A DNA stretch of 64,000 bases from an uncultured bacterium (GCA_964619725.1 CAZUFC010000024.1:14350-78349), one strand, 5' to 3'; counted from the stretch's first letter, positions 3,815 through 24,291 are shown. Translations and numbers: made by a program. Notes: a model not told the origin generated them from the sequence alone.

Positions 3815-3899
3815 GCCGGAGTGGCGGAACTGGCAGACGCGCGGGACTCAAAATCCCGTGGTCCTTTGGGCTGTGTGGGTTCGATTCCCACCTCCGGCA
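3815..3899 (+). tRNA. tRNA-Leu(CAA)
   Basis: GCCGGAG/CTCCGGC acceptor stem, D-arm TGGCGGAACTGGCAGACGC, anticodon loop CT-CAA-AA, long variable arm, GGTTCGATTCC T-arm. CCA is not encoded. Confidence 0.97.
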
Positions 3900-4696: not shown

Positions 4697-6517
4697 ATGA
4701 AAAAACTGATAATCAGGGAGCCCAACGGAAACCGTCGTTCAGTAATATTTTCCGGTCCCAAGCTGACGATCGGCAGGGATGATACTAATGATGTGGTATT
4801 GCTCGATCCGCAGGTATCCCGGCGTCATGCTGCGGTTTATATGGAAAACGGCGGTTTTTCCATAATCGACCAGCGCAGTTCAAACGGAACGTTCGTGGAT
4901 AATGAGAAGATCGTCGGGAAGCGTTTTTTAAGAGGCGATGAAACCATAAAGGTGGCGGATTACGTCATCAGTCTGGCAGTGGAAGATGCGGATGACGATA
5001 CGAACGGTTTTCGAGGGTCCCGGGCAAAAGTTGAGTCTAAAGCTCAGGAGAATGCAATGAAGTCGCAGACGGTCCGGGTTCGAGCTGCTGAAGCGCCTAA
5101 ATCCGCTCGCGGGGCAAGCCGTCCGGTCAAGCGAAATGAGGTAATGCCTGAAAAGAGAGGGGGGGGCAGGGGAGTAAAAGAGAAGTCAGAAAAACTGGAC
5201 CTGAAGCGAGAAAACATTCTAATCGACATAAGGCGTGAGATACACGGGCGACTGCTTCAGTATATGGACCTCCGGAAGATGGATTTCAACAAGATGAAGG
5301 ACCAGCGGTTGAAGAAGGACGTCAAGTCGTTGATGGACGAGATAATCCTGGAGCTTGACAATGAGATACCATCCTGGGTGGACAGGGAGATTCTGAGCAA
5401 GAATGTACTTGATGAAGCGTTGGGATTGGGACCTTTGGAGGATTATCTGGCAGACGACACTGTGACGGAGATAATGGTGAACAACAAGGATAAAATATAC
5501 GTGGAGCGTCATGGAAGATTGGAAAAGGTGTCGCGGCGTTTTTCATCGGATGAAGCGGTGTTGTCGGTTATCGAACGGATTGTGGGTCCGATAGGGCGAC
5601 GTATCGACGAGAGTTCTCCATATGTCGACGCGCGATTGAAGGACGGTTCCAGGGTCAACGCCATCATACCGCCCCTGGCTTTGACCGGACCGACCCTGAC
5701 GATAAGAAAATTTTCCCGGGAACCTTTCAAGGTGAATGATTTAATATCGTTCGGTTCTTTGACGGGAGAGATGGCACAATTTCTGGAAGCATGCGTTCGG
5801 GCGCGGAAAAACGTAATCATTTCCGGCGGAACGGGATCGGGCAAGACGACGTTGCTGAATGTCGTTTCTTCTTACATTCCTGAGGGGGAGCGAATAGTAA
5901 CGATAGAGGATGCGGCGGAATTGAAACTGCCGCAGGAGCATGTGGTTTCCCTGGAGGCGCGGCCTCCGAACATAGAGGGAAAGGGGGCCATCGTCATTCG
6001 GGACCTGGTTAAGAATTCGTTGAGGATGCGACCGGACCGCATAGTGGTGGGAGAATGTCGAGGAGGCGAGGCGCTGGATATGCTTCAGGCGATGAATACG
6101 GGGCACGACGGGTCCATAAGCACCATTCACGCCAATTCGCCTATAGACTCTTTGAACCGCCTGGAAACGATGGTGTTGATGTCGGGTATGGAATTGCCCA
6201 GCCGGGCGATCCGCGAGCAGATATCTGCAGCGATCAACATTATCGTTCAGACTGCACGGTACTCAGACGGCACCCGTAAAATTTCCCATATATCCGAGAC
6301 GCTGGGTTTTGATGAACTGGGCCGCATCAAGGTCGTCGATCTTTTCCGTTTTTACCAGGAAGGTCTGGATGAAGAGGGCGGAGTTATTGGAACATATTCA
6401 GCCACAGGCATCGCCCCGACTTTCATTGACGAATTCCGGTCCAAGGGCATACCTTTCGATATGGAGATACTCAACAAAAAAACAGACAGAATCAAGGCGC
6501 AGGTCAACCGATCATGA
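4697..6517 (+). CDS. cpaF: Tad/Flp pilus ATPase CpaF/TadA with N-terminal FHA domain
   Basis: FHA (IGR..N..L....VSRRHA...SSNGT), then GLGPLE, EIMVN, DARL.DGSRVN, Walker A GGTGSGKTT, TIEDAAEL, LRMRPDRIVVGECRG, AMNTGHDG. Confidence 0.95.
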   Translation: MKKLIIREPNGNRRSVIFSGPKLTIGRDDTNDVVLLDPQVSRRHAAVYMENGGFSIIDQRSSNGTFVDNEKIVGKRFLRGDETIKVADYVISLAVEDADDDTNGFRGSRAKVESKAQENAMKSQTVRVRAAEAPKSARGASRPVKRNEVMPEKRGGGRGVKEKSEKLDLKRENILIDIRREIHGRLLQYMDLRKMDFNKMKDQRLKKDVKSLMDEIILELDNEIPSWVDREILSKNVLDEALGLGPLEDYLADDTVTEIMVNNKDKIYVERHGRLEKVSRRFSSDEAVLSVIERIVGPIGRRIDESSPYVDARLKDGSRVNAIIPPLALTGPTLTIRKFSREPFKVNDLISFGSLTGEMAQFLEACVRARKNVIISGGTGSGKTTLLNVVSSYIPEGERIVTIEDAAELKLPQEHVVSLEARPPNIEGKGAIVIRDLVKNSLRMRPDRIVVGECRGGEALDMLQAMNTGHDGSISTIHANSPIDSLNRLETMVLMSGMELPSRAIREQISAAINIIVQTARYSDGTRKISHISETLGFDELGRIKVVDLFRFYQEGLDEEGGVIGTYSATGIAPTFIDEFRSKGIPFDMEILNKKTDRIKAQVNRS

Positions 6518-7371
6518 TTGAAAATATTCCTCTTGTCGTAAACGCCGTCGTTTTCGTTTCAGTCGTTCTGTTCATTACTGCAGGATGGAGCGTTTTTAGA
6601 AAAGGCTTCAAACGTTATGAAGAGAAATATCTCACCAGGACGGCTCAATCTCTGGATGAGATGTTTCTGGTATTCACTGCCGAACAGATTCTGTATTTGA
6701 ACCTGTTATCCGTTTTCGTTTTCGGGGCTCTGATTTTTTTCATATCTGGAAGCTGGCAGTGGATGATCTTCGGCGCCCTGTTCGGATGGCTCCTTCCCAA
6801 GATGATCCTCAGGATAATAAAAAAGAAACGTCTGAAGAATTTCGAAGAGCAGCTCCTGACGGCTTTATCGACTCTTTCCAGTTCTCTGCGGGCCGGATTC
6901 AGCCTGGTCCAGGCCCTGGAAATGATCAGCCGTGAAATGAACCCCCCTATATCGCAGGAATTCGGGCTTATGCTGAGAGAAAACAAGCTGGGCGTGCATT
7001 TGGATAAGGCACTGCAGAACATGACCGAGAGGGTCAAATCCTCCAATCTTGATCTTATGATCACATCGATCATTATCGCCAGATCATCGGGAGGCAATTT
7101 AGCTGAAATTTTCGAACGCATTTCCAATACCATTCGGGAAATCAACCGCCTGGAAGGAAAGATAAACGCTCTAACCGCTCAGGGACGTTTGCAGGGCATC
7201 ATAATAGGTTTGCTGCCCATCGTCCTGGGTTATATTATTTACCTTTTCGATCCTGAAATGATGATGCTTATGTTCAACGATCCCATAGGCTGGGGCATAT
7301 TAGGCATCATAGTCATTTTTGAGGCGCTGGGAGTCTATTTTATTTGGCGCATTATTTCTATAGATATTTAA
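6514..7371 (+). CDS. tadB: Tad inner-membrane platform protein TadB
   Basis: SSLRAGFSL.QAL, PISQEF, GGNLAE, ALTAQGR T2SSF motifs and TM helices; overlaps the cpaF stop. Confidence 0.93.
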   Translation: MIENIPLVVNAVVFVSVVLFITAGWSVFRKGFKRYEEKYLTRTAQSLDEMFLVFTAEQILYLNLLSVFVFGALIFFISGSWQWMIFGALFGWLLPKMILRIIKKKRLKNFEEQLLTALSTLSSSLRAGFSLVQALEMISREMNPPISQEFGLMLRENKLGVHLDKALQNMTERVKSSNLDLMITSIIIARSSGGNLAEIFERISNTIREINRLEGKINALTAQGRLQGIIIGLLPIVLGYIIYLFDPEMMMLMFNDPIGWGILGIIVIFEALGVYFIWRIISIDI

Positions 7372-7383
7372 GGAAGGACGACG

Positions 7384-8331
7384 ATGATTGATCTTCTGGT
7401 AGGCGATACGCGATCTTTACTTTTTTTGATAGCTATTTCTGCTTTCCTGTTCGGGAGTATTTTTCTGCTGGTGATATCATTCCGCCCGCGTCAACTGCTC
7501 CAGGAAATAGATTATGTTCCGGTAAGGTATCGGGGTCATCTCGGCCGTATCCGGGAAGATTTGAAGAAGAAGAATCCGTTATACCGGATTATGCTTCCTT
7601 TGATTTCTTTTCTCGGTTTTTTAATCGACAAGATACCCATGAAAAATTTAAAGAAAAAACTGGATAAAAAACTCATCATGGCCGGCAATCCCGGCGCTTT
7701 TTCTCCTTCTGAATATATGGCAGTCGTCATCATCGTGACCGTGGCTGTGCCGACAGCGGTTTATTTCATCATGCTTATGCTTTTCGGAAAGGCCCATCCC
7801 ATAGCCATTTTCGCAGCCTGCCTACTGGGATTCATGTACACCATTATGTGGTTGAGCGACGCGGTTACGAAACGTTCCCGTTCCATCAACAGGTCCCTGC
7901 CGTATACTCTCGATCTGCTCACCCTCTCTATCGAAGCCGGACTTGATTTCATCGCAGCGGTGGAGAGGATCGTTACCAAAAAGAAAGAAAGGGGACCTTT
8001 GACGGAAGAACTGTTTCAAATGCTGCAGGAATTGAAAATGGGCAAAACCAGAAGAGAAGCTTTACGCGACATGAGCGCCCGGGTTAACCTGGAGAACCTT
8101 AATTCCGTGGTCAGCGCTCTGATACAGGCCGATCAGTTGGGATCGAGTCTAGGACCTGTATTGAGGATTCAATCGGAAATGCTTCGGTTGCGTCGTTCGC
8201 AGAGAGCGGAAAAACTTGCCATGGAAGCGCCCGTAAAAATGACTTTCCCATTGCTCCTGATATTCACCAGCGTTTTTCTTTTATTATTCGGGCCGATTAT
8301 CATAAAATTCATCAGAGGAGGAATTTTCTAA
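7384..8331 (+). CDS. tadC: Tad inner-membrane platform protein TadC
   Basis: LPYTLDLL.LSIEAGL, G..RREAL, QADQLG, AEKLA..APVKM.FPL. Confidence 0.93.
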   Translation: MIDLLVGDTRSLLFLIAISAFLFGSIFLLVISFRPRQLLQEIDYVPVRYRGHLGRIREDLKKKNPLYRIMLPLISFLGFLIDKIPMKNLKKKLDKKLIMAGNPGAFSPSEYMAVVIIVTVAVPTAVYFIMLMLFGKAHPIAIFAACLLGFMYTIMWLSDAVTKRSRSINRSLPYTLDLLTLSIEAGLDFIAAVERIVTKKKERGPLTEELFQMLQELKMGKTRREALRDMSARVNLENLNSVVSALIQADQLGSSLGPVLRIQSEMLRLRRSQRAEKLAMEAPVKMTFPLLLIFTSVFLLLFGPIIIKFIRGGIF

Positions 8332-8336
8332 CGGAA

Positions 8337-9587
8337 ATGAGAGCTAAACTGATCATTATTGAAGGAGCCAATCCGGGCGCTGATTTCACGCTTAATTATC
8401 CTCAAATTCGTATCGGCCGTTCCGTCGATTCTGAGATAATATTGAACGACAAGACCGTTTCCAGGGTTCATGCCGTCATCAGTCAGAGTGAGAACGGGTG
8501 GGAAATCAGAGACAACGACAGTCAAAACGGCACTTTCGTAGGCGATGAGAGAATCGAAGAGGCGCCGTTGGATGACGGAGACGAAATAAAGATCGGCGCC
8601 ACAGTTTTTCAATTCCAGTTGATAAAAGAGAAGGGGGCTCGGAACTTATTCGGAGGCAAGGGCAAATCGGGCGATTTAGGCGAGAAATGGGGTAATGCGG
8701 ACCAGAAGAGGAAGGGGCTGTTGCCTTCCCGACCGGTATTAATCACTTTTTTTCTTATATGTATTGTTCTGGCGCCTTTATTTATATGGAAAGAATTCAT
8801 TGTGAAGCCGGAGGTTGATGCCAAGCCGCTGTTGTTGCCGTATCAGTTTTCGGTAGGATATATGCCGAAGGGGGACCAGGGTCACAGGAATCATGCGGAG
8901 TTGATTTTCAGCGCGGAAACGGAGGACCTGGAATTGTGGTTCAAGGTATGGGATGTGGACGATGAGGATGAGTTGGATATTCTTCTTAACGGTGAGAAGA
9001 TAGCGGATGTGGAGACGACGGGTAGCGGCAACTGGAGCGGCGAGCGTCATATCCGTCTGCCTTCGGGATTAATCAACGTGGGAAGGGACAACTCGGTCGT
9101 TTTCGATAATTATTACAATCCGCCGAAGAGTCAATTCTGGGGAGTAAGCGATATACGTGTGGTGCCGGTTACTGCTTTCGAATGCAATACGGAAGCGGCG
9201 CAGGATGCTTATGAAGTGGGAAAAGCGCTTTTCGATTCATATAAAATACGACCGCGGAACCTGTTCGATTCGATGAAAAAACTCGAGGCTTCGCTGAACT
9301 ATATGAAAAACTGTGGGGATAAACCTCCGTTTTACATTGAAGTTCAGGAGCTTCATCAGGAAGTAAAAAGCAAGTTGGATACGGAGATTAAGAATCTGTT
9401 TTTTACGGCGGCCAAGAATCGGCATTTGAAAAGATTCGATGAAGCGGAGACCGCTCTTTTGAAGATCATGGCGATGATTCCTTCGCCCAATTCGGAGGAG
9501 TACGTGCGCGCCAACCGGGAACTGATAAGGTTGAGGGGGACTATGCGCAAGTCAAGAAAGAAGGGCGGGAGTTCCGTATTGCCGTAA
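8337..9587 (+). CDS. FHA-domain single-pass membrane protein with periplasmic beta-sandwich and helical domains
   Basis: Canonical FHA (IGRS...VSRVHA...SQNGTFV), TM segment VLITFFLICIVLAPLFIW, C-terminal TPR-like helices. Confidence 0.85.
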   Translation: MRAKLIIIEGANPGADFTLNYPQIRIGRSVDSEIILNDKTVSRVHAVISQSENGWEIRDNDSQNGTFVGDERIEEAPLDDGDEIKIGATVFQFQLIKEKGARNLFGGKGKSGDLGEKWGNADQKRKGLLPSRPVLITFFLICIVLAPLFIWKEFIVKPEVDAKPLLLPYQFSVGYMPKGDQGHRNHAELIFSAETEDLELWFKVWDVDDEDELDILLNGEKIADVETTGSGNWSGERHIRLPSGLINVGRDNSVVFDNYYNPPKSQFWGVSDIRVVPVTAFECNTEAAQDAYEVGKALFDSYKIRPRNLFDSMKKLEASLNYMKNCGDKPPFYIEVQELHQEVKSKLDTEIKNLFFTAAKNRHLKRFDEAETALLKIMAMIPSPNSEEYVRANRELIRLRGTMRKSRKKGGSSVLP

Positions 9588-9663
9588 GTGGTCCGGAGGA
9601 ATCAGGCCGGGAACGGTTTGAAGTTTTGAACAGACATTAAAAAAGGAGACAGGCGAAAGATCA

Positions 9664-12084
9664 ATGGCGGGATTATTGTTTATATCAGATTCGCAGGATT
9701 CCAGAGAATATATAATCGAAAGCGACGCAACGAGCATAGGAAGCGACGAAGCGAATGCGCTGGTATTGAAGGGAGAAGGTGTCGCTCCTTTTCATTCCGA
9801 GATTCGGAAAGAAGACGCTCGATATATATTGCATGCCACCGACGAGGAAGCCTCTACTTACGTCAATGCTATCCGCACGGAAGAATGCGAATTGACGGAC
9901 GGCGATCAGATACAGATCGGAGCGCACATATTCCTGTTTCAAAGCGAACTTGATAATGAAAAAGCAGGCGCCCCTCCAGCCAATGTTTTTGATGCTGAAA
10001 AGACTATCGCTCAATTGGACGACGCTCCTTTAGCGGAACCGCGCGGAAAACTGACGGTATTTCAGGCGGGTTCTCTGGTGAACGAATTGTATTTATATGA
10101 CGAGCCTGTGTTTTTGGGGCGTGAGGATACGAACCAGCTTGTTCTGCCGGACAAGAATATCAGCCGCCGCCATGCCAAGGTGCTGCCCGTTGAAAGCGGT
10201 TATGCGGTGATTGATCTGGACAGCAGCAACGGTACCTTCGTCAACCGGCGACGGATATACGAAAGGACGGCGCTGGAATCGAACGATGAGATTCGTGTAG
10301 GTGGTTATGACGTTTTATTTCAAATGCTGGATCAGGCCGTTTCCGGAGAACGAACGGTGGTTGCGGATGAGGCGATTGAAGATGAAAATACGATTGCAGT
10401 TGAGACGGAAGAAGAGTTGCAGGCGGTTATTGAACGGCAGTATCCCAAACTGATCGTCATCAGCGAAAATAATTATGGTACCGAATACGAATTAAGAGAG
10501 TCTTTCATGACTATCGGCCGAGCAAGGGGAAACCATATCGTTATAGCCGACGATTCCATATCGCGGGAGCACGCTGCTTTAAGAATCTCCGGGGAAAAGG
10601 TCAAAGTCGATGATATGGGCAGTACGAACGGCATCCTGGTGAACGGGCAGCAGAAAGAATCGGCTGTGTTGAATCCGAATGATGTTCTGACTGTGGGAGA
10701 TATACACCTCCAATATGCTGCCCCGGGCGCTGCTTTTCAGTTGCGGGATGCCGGGGATACAGTTGATCTGACTGATCAGGATAAAAGCCGGCGAAAAAAG
10801 AAACTTTCTTCAAGTATGCCGAAGCTCCTCATTTTCGCAGCGTTGATCGTAGTGGCTGCGGGTTTCATCGGGGCTGCTCTTTTTCGTTATATAGGAGGAC
10901 CGTCCGGCGGATCGTCACGCAACACCAGCGGAAAAAGCGGCCTGTCCTTGAGTGAAAGTAAGAACGCGGTCATCGATCCTGAAGCCGCCAATATAAATCT
11001 TTATCAAACCATGACCCAGGGCCGGCAATTCCTGGACCAATATCAATGGAATGCTGCAATTCAGGAATTCGATAAGGTCCTGGCCGCACAACCGGATAAT
11101 GCTGAAGCCGTTGAATTAAGGAATAACGCTGTCGCTGAAAAAGAATACCTTCAAAAACTCGATTTCGCCATCGCCAGGTTCGACAGCGGGCAGGATAACG
11201 CAGCCCGGGAACTGTTCGAAGTAATTCCTGAAAAAAGCGTCTATTATTCCAGGGCCCGGGAATACATCGAGAGCATGAATGAATCCGCTGCAGCAGAATA
11301 TCTCGACAGCGGCCTGGCTTTGATGAGAAGAGGAAATTACGGGCAGGCCGTCAACCGTTTCGATGCCGCTCTCGATATTGATCCCGGCAATCAGGAAGCA
11401 TTGAGCGCCAGGAGAAGAGCTCTTCAGGCATTGAACGCTCCCCAAATCGAAAAACCCAAACGCGATCCCGGCGCGCTCAGAAGAAAAGCGGAGGCGCTTG
11501 TCGATCAAGCCATAAACGCTTATGTTGAAGGAGAACCTGAAAAAGCGGAAAACCGCCTTAACGGAGTCATGGCCCTGGACCTGAATCCCGGCGATCAAAT
11601 CGTCAGAGAAGCCCAGACGCTATTGAGCAGAATTAAACAGGTCAAATCACATTTTCAGGCCGGAAAAAACGCTTTTCAGCGGAATGAAAATGAAAAAGGC
11701 CTGAACGATTACCTGAACGTAATAGAAATAGACAGGCAAATCACCGATAAGAAAAACAGCTACTATTATACGGAAGTTAAAGGAACCGCTGTTGAAGAAT
11801 TGTTGAATCAGGGTCGCGCATATGAAGATTCTCAACAATTCTGCAAGGCGTTCAGAAATTACCGGGAAATCTTAAAAATCGATCCGGACAACTGGAAGGC
11901 CGAGAAATATATTGAAGCCATCGAGAAGAAAGCGATTGACATCTACAGGGTCGGTTATAGTCAGCAGGATTTCAATCCGCGTCTCACAGCTAGCCGGTAT
12001 AAGGAAGTTATGAATCTGCTGTGCCCCGAACACGAATATTATAAAAAGGCGCAGCAGGGTATCGAAGAAATTATGAACAGGTGA
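9664..12084 (+). CDS. Triple-FHA, single-TM, periplasmic TPR protein
   Basis: One degenerate FHA (IGSD..VAPFH) and two canonical FHAs (LGRE..ISRRHA..SSNGT; IGRA..ISREHA..STNG), TM LLIFAALIVVAAGFIGAALF, multiple TPRs. Confidence 0.88.
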   Translation: MAGLLFISDSQDSREYIIESDATSIGSDEANALVLKGEGVAPFHSEIRKEDARYILHATDEEASTYVNAIRTEECELTDGDQIQIGAHIFLFQSELDNEKAGAPPANVFDAEKTIAQLDDAPLAEPRGKLTVFQAGSLVNELYLYDEPVFLGREDTNQLVLPDKNISRRHAKVLPVESGYAVIDLDSSNGTFVNRRRIYERTALESNDEIRVGGYDVLFQMLDQAVSGERTVVADEAIEDENTIAVETEEELQAVIERQYPKLIVISENNYGTEYELRESFMTIGRARGNHIVIADDSISREHAALRISGEKVKVDDMGSTNGILVNGQQKESAVLNPNDVLTVGDIHLQYAAPGAAFQLRDAGDTVDLTDQDKSRRKKKLSSSMPKLLIFAALIVVAAGFIGAALFRYIGGPSGGSSRNTSGKSGLSLSESKNAVIDPEAANINLYQTMTQGRQFLDQYQWNAAIQEFDKVLAAQPDNAEAVELRNNAVAEKEYLQKLDFAIARFDSGQDNAARELFEVIPEKSVYYSRAREYIESMNESAAAEYLDSGLALMRRGNYGQAVNRFDAALDIDPGNQEALSARRRALQALNAPQIEKPKRDPGALRRKAEALVDQAINAYVEGEPEKAENRLNGVMALDLNPGDQIVREAQTLLSRIKQVKSHFQAGKNAFQRNENEKGLNDYLNVIEIDRQITDKKNSYYYTEVKGTAVEELLNQGRAYEDSQQFCKAFRNYREILKIDPDNWKAEKYIEAIEKKAIDIYRVGYSQQDFNPRLTASRYKEVMNLLCPEHEYYKKAQQGIEEIMNR

Positions 12085-12131
12085 CGAGCGGAGCTTCCGT
12101 CGCAGGTTTGAAAAGTCAAGAGGCCGGCATT

Positions 12132-13115
12132 ATGAGTGAAAAAATCGACAGCATCAAACTCATGAAAATGAGCAATATTTTATTGATTTTATTGATTTTG
12201 GTTATTTCGGCATGCAGGCATAAGACTCCCGGTCCTTATGATGGGGAAGGCATGGCCCCGGATGAAAAAGAACTCGTTAAAGAAGTTACCGATAATCCTG
12301 ACGACTATGAAGCTCATTACAGGCTGGGCTGTTTTTATATGGATAACGGTCGCCCGACAGACGCGATAGAAGAATTCAACGCGGCGCTCTTTTTGAATCC
12401 GAATTCATTCAAATCCTGGTTCAGGTTGGGTTATGCCAAAATGCTTCAGTCCCGTTTTTACGATGCCGTCATGCCCCTGGAAAATGCTGTCGCCCTGTCG
12501 CCCGATTCCACAATAGCCCGAAATAATCTGGGTTACGTATACATCCAGATTGGAGAATTCGGTAAGGCGGAAGATCAGTTTAATGCTGTATTGAGCATAG
12601 AACCCGATTCTCCGGAAGCTCACAGGAATTTGGCCGTCATCTATACGCACTTCAATAAAAACCTGGAAAAAGCGCTTCATCACAACCGGGAATTCGTTAA
12701 ACTTGCCCCCGACGATCCTAGGACTCCCAGGCTGAAACAGTGGATTCTGTCAAAGGAAAAACTTGTGGAGGAACCTCCAGAACCTTATTCCGGAGAGCCG
12801 TCCGAAGCTGCAGAGCAGCAGATGGCTTTGGCGTCCAAACATTACGCCGACGGCCTGGATGCTCTGAAGGCAGGGCGTGACAGAGATGCTTACCGTTATT
12901 TTATGATGGCCCTGGCTGAGAATCCCTGGCATGAAGAAGCAAACTATAAAATGGCTGAATTTTATGCGTCCAAAAATCCGCCTGCTCCTGCTGCAGCCTT
13001 GCAATGCATCCGCAGAGCGTTGACTATGGCTCCCGATTCCGAAAGATACAAAGAATTGGAAGAGAAAATACTGGAACTGGTAGAAGAAAAAGCGGCAAAA
13101 AGCAAATCGAATTAA
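12132..13115 (+). CDS. TPR-repeat lipoprotein
   Basis: Lipobox LILVISA|C and tandem TPRs (AHYRLG, ARNNLG, AHRNLA). Start is uncertain (12081/12132/12162). Confidence 0.85.
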   Translation: MSEKIDSIKLMKMSNILLILLILVISACRHKTPGPYDGEGMAPDEKELVKEVTDNPDDYEAHYRLGCFYMDNGRPTDAIEEFNAALFLNPNSFKSWFRLGYAKMLQSRFYDAVMPLENAVALSPDSTIARNNLGYVYIQIGEFGKAEDQFNAVLSIEPDSPEAHRNLAVIYTHFNKNLEKALHHNREFVKLAPDDPRTPRLKQWILSKEKLVEEPPEPYSGEPSEAAEQQMALASKHYADGLDALKAGRDRDAYRYFMMALAENPWHEEANYKMAEFYASKNPPAPAAALQCIRRALTMAPDSERYKELEEKILELVEEKAAKSKSN

Positions 13116-13223
13116 ATCATAACACCTGTTGCAGGAAAGTATAAAAACATTTTTTGACTCTAAGTCCGATACGCATGAAACGGAGGATGCGTTCATCGGG
13201 GATTTCTTTCCGATAAATTTTGC

Positions 13224-13251
13224 TTGACAGTATTTTTTCTTTTATCTATAT
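13224..13251 (+). promoter_or_regulatory. Sigma70-type promoter of rplM-rpsI
   Basis: TTGACA-16 bp-TATATT about 50 bp upstream of rplM. Confidence 0.5.
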
Positions 13252-13302
13252 TGTGCAATTCGACATCACTGGAACAGATGTCGGTAAAGGAGCGAGCGAG
13301 GT

Positions 13303-21542: not shown

Positions 21543-21990
21543 TCAAGAGTTTCATGCAGTAATTACAGACCTGTTTGAACCGGCTGACTATCACGCCGCT
21601 CGTATTTTTATTGGGAACGACAAAAAAAACGGCGCAATACATTCTCCCATTTACAAAGGCATAGTTTTAGACGCACTCGTTACAAGAATTCAGCCGGGAT
21701 CGGTATCGAAATAGAAGCAAATAGTGCCGGGAGCTTTACGCAAAAAAAAAACGGATGTTTATCAGGCGATGATGAAGCATTTTGGGTTTAATTGCACTGT
21801 GAGTAATTGAGTGACAATGCCTTTGCTTTTTTTTGAATATTTTGACACAGTGCACAATTATCAGTATTTGATGAAGAGATGGCCTTTTATGCGAGGCTGC
21901 TTAGCTTTTTTTGAGACTGCTTGCGTTTCATTTATAATATGGTTTTTCGGTGAAAAAAACGAAAAGTAATATTTTATGACGGAGGAGAGG

Positions 21991-24291
21991 ATGAAAAAAT
22001 TATCGACGTTTTTTGTTTTTCTAGGCGTATTATTGACTGCCGCATTCGTGCATGCGGCAATACCTCAAACGGTTAACTACCAGGGATATCTGACTGATGC
22101 CGACGGCCTGGCGCTTAACGGCGCTTTTTCCATGGAATTCCAGATTTATGATGCGGAGATTGAGGGAACGCTTCTGTGGTCAGAGCAGCAAACGGAGGTG
22201 GCGGTTGATTCCGGATTATTTCATGTGCTGCTGGGTGATGCCGTCCCGATAGATTTGACGTTTGACGAACCATATTGGCTGGAGATCATAGTGGAAGGCG
22301 AACCTTTATATCCCCGGCAAGCGTTGACGAGCGTGGGCCAGGCATTTAAAGCGGCTGATGCGGATGATGTTTACGGTAGAGACATTAATCCCGGCAGTAT
22401 CTCCATTGAAGAATACGGACTAGTAATTGACGAAACAGGACAATGGGTAGGCGATCCCACCGGTTTAACGGGTCCGCAGGGCGACACCGGTCCGACAGGC
22501 CCTCAAGGCGACACAGGTCCGATAGGCCCTCAAGGCGAAACCGGCCCGATAGGTCCCCAAGGCGAAACCGGTCCGGTAGGTTCTCAAGGCGATACCGGCC
22601 CGATAGGTCCTCAAGGCGACACCGGTCCGATAGGCCCTCAAGGTGATACCGGTCCGATAGGTCCCCAAGGCGATACCGGTCCGATAGGCCCTCAAGGCGA
22701 CACCGGTCCAGTAGGTCCTCAAGGCGACACCGGTCCGATAGGCCCTCAAGGCGACACCGGTCCGATAGGTCCCCAAGGTGAAACCGGCCCAATGGGCCTC
22801 CAGGGTGATACTGGTCCGATTGGTCCCCAAGGCGACACCGGTCCGATAGGTCCTCAAGGCGATACCGGCCCAATAGGTCCCCAAGGTGACACCGGTCCAA
22901 TGGGACTTCAGGGTGATACTGGTCCGATTGGTCCCCAAGGCGACACCGGTCCGATAGGTCCTCAAGGCGATACCGGCCCAATAGGTCCCCAAGGCGATAC
23001 CGGCCCAATAGGTCTCCAAGGTGAAACCGGCCCAATGGGCCTCCAGGGTGAAACCGGCCCGATAGGCCCTCAAGGCGAAACCGGCCCAATGGGACTCCAG
23101 GGTGAAACCGGCCCGATGGGCCCGCAAGGCGATACGGGTCCTCAAGGTCCGCAGGGTCCGCCAGGTCCGCAAGGTTTGACGGGTCCGCAGGGTCCCACCG
23201 GTCCGCAAGGAATGCAAGGCGACCAGGGACCTATAGGTCCACAGGGGCCGACGGGGCCACAAGGCGAACAGGGCCCGACTGGTCCCCAGGGTCCGCAAGG
23301 ACCGACAGGTCCGGTTGCAGGTTCAGACAATCAAATGATCTACAATGACAACGGAAGCGCCGGCGGCGCCGAAATCTATTATGACGACGCGACCGGTAAC
23401 CTGGGCATAGGGACAAACGATCCCCAAACAGCGCTTCATGTAGAAGGCGTAATATATAACCCTGCTAAATCTTTTTCTTTTTATCTGCGTGACGATACGC
23501 GTCTGGGACTGCAGTATGAAGGGGCCCAGACGAACGGACAGTTTATCGTCGATTGGATTTTTTCCGAAGATTTCATTACCGATACAGGATGTGATCCGTC
23601 GGTCGATATTATATGGATGTATAAGAACGGCCATTGGTATGCTTCTGACGGACCCGGCGGAGGACCTGACGATATAGGTTCCGGGACCGTCATAGACAAC
23701 GGCGACACTTTCTATGTGTTTTTATCCTCTTCCAGCAGTTGCTACGGTCTCATACACTGGCCTGGTTCTTACAGTCTGGGATACGGATGGCAGGATATTA
23801 TCGTCAGAGACGTCAGCGCATACGATATTTCAGCCGACGGTAATGTCGGCGTCGGTTATGCGGCGGGCGGCGGCGCCGAATTAGCCGTTGACGGCAATGT
23901 CGCCATCGGAACAAACAGCGCATCCAATCCCATAACTATGGGCGGAGGAGCCTACTGCACCGGTTCTGCCTGGGTGAATTCCTCCTCCCGGGAATACAAG
24001 CAAAATATTCAGGAATTACCTTTAAACAAGGCATTACAGGCATTGCCGGAACTAAAACCGGTCACATTCAACTACAAAAATGATCCGGAAGAACAATGGA
24101 CTGGCTTTATCTCAGAAGAACTGCCGGAACTCGCTCAAGTCCATGAAGGAAAAGGCGCCAGCGCTCTCGACATCGTCGCCATTCTGACGAGAATCGTGCA
24201 GGACCAGCAGAAACGTCTTGAAGAACAACAGGCATTGCTGGAACGACAAACGAAAGAAATAGAGGAACTGAAATCCAGGTTGAAACCTTGA
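21991..24291 (+). CDS. Secreted collagen-like trimeric fibre with C-terminal peptidase S74 intramolecular chaperone (paralog 1)
   Basis: Signal peptide (..VHA|AIP), N-domain [13 protein letters not shown], ~95 Gly-X-Y triplets, [14 protein letters not shown] fibre repeats, [21 protein letters not shown] chaperone, then a coiled coil. Start chosen at MKKLS after RBS GGAGGA. Confidence 0.88.
22462..23316 (+). repeat. 9/27-bp coding tandem repeat (GPQ-GD/ET-GPI)n
   Basis: 855 bp = 95 Gly-X-Y codon triplets. Confidence 0.95.

Follow-up and report, generated by a model that had tools for sequence, protein, structure and literature searches.

The Kil machine of Myxococcus xanthus, a Tad-like apparatus for contact-dependent killing, is encoded by two clusters, kil cluster I (MXAN_3102-3108) and kil cluster II (MXAN_4648-4661) (PMC8460266; PMC12075869). 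As described in PMC8460266, cluster I comprises a forkhead-associated (FHA) protein, the peptidase KilA, the secretin KilC, the FHA-ATPase KilF and KilD, which combines FHA with tetratricopeptide repeats (TPR); cluster II comprises MXAN_4648 (FHA and TPR), MXAN_4649 (FHA), KilH, KilG, the CpaB protein KilB and pilins. Section 11 of that paper and section 16 of PMC12075869 place Kil-like systems in Myxococcales, Bdellovibrionales and Bradymonadales, and the supplement of the latter may list further phyla. Here we analysed a 64,000-nt stretch of DNA from an uncultured bacterium (GCA_964619725.1 CAZUFC010000024.1:14350-78349), referred to below as the window, which corresponds to C24:14350-78349 of a metagenome-assembled genome (MAG). 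Positions without a contig name are those of the whole window. At 4697-13115 it carries an operon for a Tad-type ATPase, two platform proteins and three further proteins rich in FHA and TPR domains. On the strength of homology, we consider that this operon probably supplies a Kil-type Tad (type IVc) pilus machine with its motor, its platform and its scaffold, and put the probability of this reading, including the mechanism proposed below, at roughly 0.6.

Fusion of FHA to CpaF is an architecture that has already been published, as class III CpaF (PMC12019362). The class III loci compared here (Acidithiobacillus, Thauera, Piscinibacter, Halofilum, Oleiphilus, Chromatiales and a Moraxella bovis plasmid) are contiguous and encode Flp, TadG, CpaB, CpaC, FHA-CpaF, TadB, TadC, a small TPR protein and TadE; no further FHA protein was seen in them, Moraxella being judged from its annotation. 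The present operon shares with these beta- and gammaproteobacterial Tad systems the architecture and the clade of its ATPase, beside which no TadZ/CpaE was seen, and differs from them in having two further FHA proteins (four more FHA domains) after TadC and in belonging to a split locus. An initial annotation of the window, made from the sequence, had stated that canonical Tad loci lack FHA domains. This was too strong, given that class III, as described in PMC12019362, occurs in ordinary proteobacterial Tad loci. In the Tad/Cpa systems of Caulobacter and Aggregatibacter, on the other hand, CpaF/TadA lacks FHA and the locus is contiguous and includes TadZ/CpaE, a pattern that the present operon, with FHA on its ATPase, does not follow.

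According to a preprint (10.64898/2026.07.08.737194), the tad genes of Bdellovibrio bacteriovorus are dispersed, essential and involved in predation, and genes for FHA and TPR proteins lie near them. The dispersal and the FHA and TPR neighbours are features in common with the system described here, whereas the ATPase from Bdellovibrionota (L054) has a ParA/TadZ-like domain rather than FHA, and TadZ is present there.

Operon architecture and Kil counterparts

All six open reading frames (ORFs) of the operon lie on the + strand, separated by gaps of -4, 12, 5, 76 and -4 nt. In order, they encode FHA-CpaF, the motor ATPase (606 aa, 4697..6517; Pfam FHA 1.5e-16, T2SSE 9.6e-64), a TadB-type inner-membrane platform protein (285 aa, 6514..7371; a single T2SSF, 6.9e-22), its TadC-type partner (315 aa, 7384..8331; a single T2SSF, 6.1e-16), an FHA-transmembrane (FHA-TM) protein (416 aa, 8337..9587; FHA 7e-21), a 3xFHA-TM-TPR protein (806 aa, 9664..12084; FHA in three stretches, 2e-46, plus TPR) and a TPR lipoprotein (344 aa from a GTG codon, 12081..13115; Pfam TPR families). 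Together the proteins hold five FHA domains, and in four of the five the phosphothreonine-binding GR, SxxH and NG residues are kept. The ORF calls, Pfam matches and residue check therefore confirm the original description of six tightly spaced, co-oriented genes with five FHA domains.

Read from its N terminus, FHA-CpaF has an FHA domain (aa 1-95), then a linker and last an ATPase of the CpaF/TadA type, whose Walker A, Asp box, Walker B and His box are intact (aa 377, 400, 449 and 469). Over its full length it is 55% identical to the corresponding protein of a genome from the same phylum (G002:C163) and ~51% identical to the KilF orthologues of Archangium and Citreicoccus. Trees of the CpaF core were built over 420 columns with a VirB11 outgroup, using FastTree for 103 rows and an IQ-TREE quick tree for 55 rows. 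The rows were the best 80 of >601 contig-search matches together with hand-picked references, and the 55-row tree kept the FHA clade plus a sample of the remaining rows. In the IQ-TREE analysis the window ATPase paired with that of G002 (SH-aLRT 89) within a 25-row clade (88), 23 of whose rows carry FHA; its members include the Archangium and Citreicoccus KilF orthologues, a Myxococcota MAG, two PVC (Planctomycetes-Verrucomicrobia-Chlamydiae) sequences and proteobacterial FHA-CpaFs. None of the five canonical CpaFs from plasmids (Sinorhizobium pSymA, Rhizobium, Ralstonia, Burkholderia and Vibrio) fell within the starred 45-row clade (95), and the Bdellovibrionota ATPases sampled branched outside the FHA clade. 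FastTree agreed with IQ-TREE on the placement of the window ATPase, which groups with the FHA-CpaF clade that includes the KilF orthologues and not with canonical Tad.

The comparison also turned up CpaFs of 725-767 aa in which an N-terminal ParA/TadZ-like domain takes the place of FHA: L054 (Pseudobdellovibrionaceae), L130 (G004:C219) and L133 (G002:C3). Near the one at G004:C219 are encoded two FHA-TPR proteins and a TPR protein. Within the source genome, a second CpaF-like gene (C86:20217-21509, 430 aa) was set aside as a part of the system, as it has neither FHA nor adjoining Tad genes. Its product falls together with orphan paralogues from G002 and G004 (SH-aLRT 100). On the Moraxella bovis plasmid (L145, NZ_CP087831.1), a gene whose annotation is RHS repeat-associated core domain protein directly follows the class III locus, a hint that some class III loci adjoin contact-dependent toxins.

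The remaining genes were compared with the kil clusters of Citreicoccus inhibens (Myxococcaceae). There, cluster I (L038) encodes an FHA protein, an A24 peptidase, a secretin, FHA-CpaF and a 740-aa 2xFHA protein, and cluster II (L144) encodes pilins, CpaB, TadB, TadC, an FHA-TM protein (471 aa) and an FHA-TM-TPR protein (586 aa); the last four genes of L144 stand in the same order as in the window operon. TadB and TadC of the window, the only single-domain T2SSF genes in the genome, both match cluster II proteins of Citreicoccus, TadB at 2e-66 and TadC with 49% identity (3e-62). By homology, they are the KilG/KilH counterparts.

The 416-aa FHA-TM protein comprises an FHA domain (aa 1-98), a disordered linker, a membrane segment (aa 126-158, one helix by hydropathy), a jelly-roll (aa ~173-277) and five TPR-like helices (aa 285-409). 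The AlphaFold (AF2) pLDDT is 90.5 for the whole protein and 95.2 for the periplasmic part alone, and the predicted topology places FHA in the cytoplasm and the jelly-roll and TPR-like five-helix domain in the periplasm. A fold search with the whole model returned only FHA matches, closest to the phosphothreonine binders GarA and OdhI (38-40% identity), and none for the periplasmic part. The jelly-roll is nearest in fold to the carbohydrate-binding domain of BcsB (Z 9.5, root mean square deviation 2.6 Å over 102 aa) and to CBM35; both resemblances are middling and the matches of the TPR-like helices are generic (Z 8-10), so that no specific function can be read from either part. Without its FHA domain, the periplasmic part matches the 471-aa Citreicoccus cluster II protein, which occupies the same position, at E 1e-11, and we regard the 416-aa protein, as a homologue, as the counterpart of MXAN_4649.

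A search with this periplasmic part against 1.84 billion representatives yielded 494 proteins at E ≤ 1e-3, 200 of them at E ≤ 1e-10. Among the best 150 of the 494, 46 share the architecture of FHA, TM, N-domain and C-domain at a length of ~400-470 aa, in 92, all large, the ~110-aa N-domain alone is repeated, and 12 have other forms. This ~110-aa jelly-roll recurs in 2-15 copies in big proteins that lack FHA (up to 3689 aa; e.g. P0002-P0008) and appears to represent an unnamed family of repeat domains. A complex prediction for the periplasmic parts of the 416-aa and 806-aa proteins scored 0.20, against a mark of 0.32, a result that carries no weight either way as to whether they bind each other.

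The 806-aa protein carries FHA1 at aa 1-95, FHA2 at 126-222 and FHA3 at 261-355, followed by a membrane segment at 380-412 (one helix by hydropathy) and a periplasmic TPR part at 413-806. FHA1 is degenerate, without GR, SxxH or NG; FHA2 and FHA3 are canonical. Searched alone, the periplasmic part matches G002 at 7e-28, a 722-aa protein of a Myxococcota MAG at 2e-23 and the 586-aa Citreicoccus orthologue of MXAN_4648 at 1e-9. Against the KilD orthologues its matches are weak, at 1e-5 (Archangium) and 1e-4 (Citreicoccus) for the whole protein and 0.02 and 0.0016 for the best single stretches. Taking these homologies together, the 806-aa protein is identified as the MXAN_4648/KilD counterpart.

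The ORF of the TPR lipoprotein opens with GTG at 12081, the likely start being Met28 at 12162. Its signal, judged by hydropathy, ends in ...LILVISAC, the Cys of the lipobox being residue 45. PilW (8e-18) and Tgl (3e-15) are among the best NCBIfam matches, none of which reaches its cut-off, and G002 has a 389-aa TPR gene in the same position (5e-15). We consider the protein a candidate for the secretin's pilotin, of the kind represented by TadD, PilW and Tgl.

Partner loci, relatives and flanking genes

The source MAG measures 9.17 Mb on 344 contigs at 47% GC. Its phylum, with 14 genomes in the searched collection, is neither Myxococcota nor Bdellovibrionota, and the genome is thus non-myxobacterial, as had been proposed. 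Four DNA runs, all from a single study and labelled microbial mat metagenome, contain this DNA, and it may derive from one of them; no RNA run is among those listed.

Consistent with the initial annotation, the window contains no gene for Flp, CpaB, a secretin or a prepilin peptidase, and these partners were located on contigs C52 and C22. RcpC/CpaB (RcpC/SAF) and a Tad-type secretin (pil_N + Secretin) each have one match genome-wide, and the two genes are adjacent at C52:29090-31403. The Kil secretin, KilC, lacks an N0 domain. Flp-like matches are confined to C22, where co-oriented genes encode an 82-aa Flp prepilin, a 176-aa A24 peptidase, a 207-aa Flp-like protein, TadE, TadG, a further TadE and a 330-aa ORF, the minor pilins being typed by Pfam only; the TadV-type peptidase, too, occurs on C22 only. 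By tblastn, no paralogues of these Tad parts were found elsewhere in the genome. In tetranucleotide composition C24, C52 and C22 all lie within the median distance of the bin.

In G002:C163, from the same phylum, a contiguous locus encodes CpaB, CpaC, FHA-CpaF, TadB, TadC, an FHA-TM protein (475 aa), a 3xFHA-TPR protein (990 aa) and a TPR protein (389 aa). Because the partners are single-copy, their composition is typical and the G002 locus is contiguous, the C24, C52 and C22 loci are best read as a single predicted machine whose ancestral locus has been broken up. The pilin and the secretin sought beyond the window are therefore both present in the genome, in a system split over three loci. 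A shorter version at G010:C9 encodes CpaB, CpaC, FHA-CpaF, TadB, TadC, a 285-aa ORF and an FHA-TPR protein (537 aa), with a Ser/Thr kinase alongside. The FHA-CpaF operon occurs in 3 of the 14 phylum genomes, and the arrangement FHA-CpaF, TadB, TadC, FHA-TM is also found on Lentisphaeria and Victivallales contigs. No ParA-like gene was found in the operon or in the C52 and C22 loci examined, TadZ not having been searched for genome-wide.

Our own scan of the 9.17-Mb genome with an FHA hidden Markov model detected 16 FHA domains in 13 ORFs, five domains being in the operon and three in a cluster on C79 that is described below. The genome has 34 kinase-like ORFs. Ser/Thr kinases adjoin the related loci in G010, L107 (two) and L045. 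On C52, three genes upstream of the CpaB-secretin pair, lies a gene for a 683-aa fusion of an Hsp70-like ATPase and a Ser/Thr kinase (C52:24300-26351), followed by one for a tandem-USP (universal stress protein) protein.

Set beside Kil, the system shares an FHA-fused CpaF, two single-domain GspF-like platform proteins and, in the order of cluster II, an FHA-TM and then an FHA-TM-TPR protein after the platform genes. The periplasmic domains of the FHA-TM proteins are homologous independently of FHA. Further shared features are that other loci specify CpaB, a Tad-type secretin, the pilins (Flp and minor) and a peptidase, and that the genome contains a T3SS*-like cluster. It differs from Kil in the manner of the split, with the ATPase beside the platform, the secretin beside CpaB and the pilins beside the peptidase. 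It has one 3xFHA protein, where Myxococcus has KilD (two FHA in the Citreicoccus orthologue) and MXAN_4648 (one FHA), and its operon ends with a TPR lipoprotein. Its host is flagellated and belongs to another phylum. ATPase phylogeny, cluster II gene order and the FHA-independent periplasmic matches thus uphold the initial reading of a Kil-like module. The suggestion that the system was undescribed is not borne out: judged by homology, every part has a Kil counterpart, and what is new is the occurrence in a further phylum, together with the split pattern, the 3xFHA protein and the operon-closing TPR lipoprotein.

Upstream of the operon lie tRNA-Leu (3815-3899), an unconserved 167-aa ORF and a divergent GT2 (glycosyltransferase family 2) gene, and downstream are the housekeeping genes rplM, rpsI, rpsB, tsf, pyrH, frr, uppS, cdsA, dxr and ispG. 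A terminator-like hairpin on the + strand (13195..13214) follows the TPR lipoprotein gene, and between it and rplM is a promoter-like site (13224-13252, 11/12 matches). The two probably mark the 3′ end of the operon; this assignment is weak, because the total counts in the promoter and terminator scans of the region were at chance level (11 found vs 11.4 expected; 15 vs 11.7).

Further upstream, the minus strand encodes a 349-aa triple-T2SSG pseudopilin (312-1361) and, before the window (C24:10154-14397), a 444-aa ORF without Pfam match, a PilO-like protein, a 184-aa ORF and a 549-aa secretin, beyond which follow giant Ig/BNR proteins. This cluster of pseudopilin, PilO and secretin was set aside as a Tad partner, being of type II secretion system (T2SS) or type IVa pilus type. 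It is a half-cluster, and no ATPase gene adjoins it. The genome contains 27 T2SSE matches and seven secretins. The 771-aa product of a + strand gene at 21976-24291 combines collagen triple-helix repeats with a Peptidase_S74 domain (endosialidase chaperone) and resembles a phage tail fibre; GC is raised around it (0.54-0.57 vs ~0.47).

A T3SS*-like cluster in the same genome

[quoted passage not shown] In addition to a flagellar cluster on C7, a second export apparatus was found on C79. The non-flagellar T3SS-like loci, all outside the window, are at C79:14115-24297 (- strand), C79:2768-5153 (+ strand) and C16:27915-30817 (+ strand). The C79 genes encode a sigma factor, a 140-aa ORF, a short SctJ, SctN (T3SS ATPase C-domain), a YscO-like protein (SctO), a FliK/SctP-like protein, an FHA::FliM-FliN fusion (FHA::SctQ, 535 aa), FliO, SctR, SctS, SctT, SctU and a 1213-aa Pkinase-AAA-TPR protein. 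Elsewhere on C79, at a distance of a few kb, are genes for a TPR protein and then a 2xFHA-TM protein, and C16 carries an orphan SctV gene preceded by a TPR gene. No secretin was found on C79 or C16. The needle family PF09392 has no match in the genome, a search that the control genomes do not test.

The genes on C79 and C16, including non-core ones, are collinear with a locus of Citreicoccus (Myxococcaceae), G041:C57. SctR is 60% identical to its G041:C57 counterpart, as compared with 38% between FliP of C7 and Citreicoccus; the corresponding values are 42% for SctU vs 33% for FlhB, and 54% for SctV vs 35% for FlhA. SctN is 63-65% identical to that of G041:C57 and 48% to the genome's own FliI on C7, and it is also 57-58% identical to listed Ysc-type ATPases, so that SctN identity alone does not separate T3SS* from injectisomes. 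Identity to G041:C57 is 34% for SctJ, 45% for the 140-aa ORF, 31% for the sigma factor and 30% for the 2xFHA protein.

As described in PMC12075869 and in section 5 of PMC10433427, the T3SS* of M. xanthus has a sorting platform and an export apparatus and lacks secretin, needle and translocon. By its gene content the C79/C16 system fits a needleless T3SS* of this kind, where G041:C57 is presumed to be the orthologue of mxan_2434-2464. A short SctJ beside SctN occurs in 11 of the 14 phylum genomes, and a T3SS-like system is therefore common in the phylum; such an apparatus seems commoner there than flagella. FliF of flagellar length was seen only in G000 and G004 among the phylum genomes. In the part of a 2025 review that bears on this point (PMC12428579), the joint presence of Kil and T3SS* seems limited to Cystobacterineae. 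Judged by its predicted genes, the present genome is a counter-example to this restriction at the level of gene content.

Competing readings and a model for the machine

Homology upholds the Kil reading, with killing as a putative function, and several points weigh against it. The MAG is 90.9% complete with 6.5% contamination and is divided into 344 contigs, and the joining of three of these rests on single-copy counts, composition and the synteny of a relative. The window contains no Ser/Thr kinase. Tree supports are moderate (SH-aLRT 88-91, without bootstrap), and the ten ATPases that have extra FHA proteins encoded beside them, a group picked once the tree was known, were neither upheld nor rejected as a single clade by an approximately unbiased test (p 0.086). 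The FHA-CpaF clade is not exclusive to Kil, as it includes gamma- and betaproteobacterial FHA-CpaFs (Acidithiobacillus, Thauera, Piscinibacter and others) whose loci have the appearance of ordinary Tad loci and for which no predatory role is known; membership of the clade alone therefore does not imply killing. Lastly, the Tip minor-pilin complexes (KilN-like and others) that are linked to prey specificity and toxicity are reported in section 16 of PMC12075869 as restricted to Myxococcota.

The leading rival, which we regard as rather unlikely, is a phosphorylation-gated Tad pilus for adhesion, surface sensing and attachment in mats or biofilms, in which the FHA scaffold would time or place assembly. 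Tad pili by default serve in adhesion and surface sensing (PMC8460266, section 7), and the same clade contains FHA-CpaFs from ordinary-looking Tad loci of non-predatory proteobacteria, of the class III type already described (PMC12019362). The microbial mat label denotes a setting where attachment matters, and the modelled periplasmic jelly-roll resembles carbohydrate-binding modules. Against this, the two extra FHA-TM proteins set the Kil type apart from class III loci and match Kil in their non-FHA parts, and the genome encodes a T3SS*-like partner machine. An improbable alternative, raised as a possibility in the discussions of PMC8460266 and PMC12075869 for Kil itself, is T2SS-like secretion, whereby a short pseudopilus would push effectors or hydrolases through the secretin, perhaps substrates passed on by the T3SS-like export apparatus. 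The contigs of the latter hold no secretin and the genome no needle match (with an uninformative control), so that this apparatus would require a different way through the outer membrane. Beside none of the loci, however, was a candidate substrate identified; Flp with TadE/TadG makes up a pilus set, and the same uninformative control weakens the case drawn from the missing needle.

It is very improbable that the operon is a decaying remnant, broken by rearrangement and no longer encoding a working machine. The ancestral arrangement, contiguous in G002, is divided here among three loci, the place just upstream of the operon that CpaB and CpaC occupy in G002 is taken by tRNA-Leu, and FHA1 of the 806-aa protein is degenerate. 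Nevertheless, the genes of the three loci are open and of full length, and the catalytic and phosphothreonine-binding motifs are kept. Moreover, splitting is compatible with function elsewhere: according to PMC8460266 the Kil system of M. xanthus is split yet works, and the preprint on B. bacteriovorus (10.64898/2026.07.08.737194) describes tad genes that are dispersed and essential.

For the Kil-type machine we propose a model in which FHA-CpaF, by homology, would power pilus assembly on the TadB/TadC platform. The two bitopic FHA proteins are predicted, likewise from their homologues, to expose phosphothreonine-reading FHA domains in the cytoplasm and jelly-roll or TPR domains in the periplasm. 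A Ser/Thr kinase would phosphorylate a component of the machine on an envelope or contact signal, and the four competent FHA domains may then bring the ATPase and scaffold to the phosphorylated site. The pilus would thereby be built on demand and not constitutively, as proposed for Kil and known for T6SS Fha1/PpkA. The TPR lipoprotein would serve as the pilotin of the secretin or as a tether to the outer membrane. The type VI secretion system (T6SS) comparison follows PMC8460266, where the PpkA/PppA/Fha1 pathway of Pseudomonas aeruginosa is cited as an analogy for Kil. The threonine-phosphorylation pathway would be alike in principle, with an FHA scaffold reading an envelope or contact kinase signal and licensing assembly of the machine; the machine itself is unrelated, and the likeness is a mechanistic analogy taken from the literature. 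More speculatively, the machine and the T3SS*-like apparatus might attack neighbours on contact in a dense mat.

About half of the FHA domains of the genome reside in the operon and the T3SS*-like system. As a tentative extension of the model, which we regard as less likely than not, a Kil pilus and a needleless T3SS* could constitute an ancient or horizontally shared contact-killing kit rather than one invented within the Cystobacterineae lineage. All steps of its assembly would be gated by FHA and Ser/Thr kinases, and this 9-Mb flagellated mat bacterium could be an unrecognised predator. This genome, of another and little-sampled phylum, has, by homology, part-by-part counterparts of both Kil and T3SS*. 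If this correspondence holds, the Kil/T3SS* tandem would be older or more mobile than thought, the uncharacterised MXAN_4648 and MXAN_4649 would belong to the conserved core, and uncultured predators in mats could be recognised by their gene content. G002, where the genes are contiguous, supplies a clean minimal gene set for the machine.

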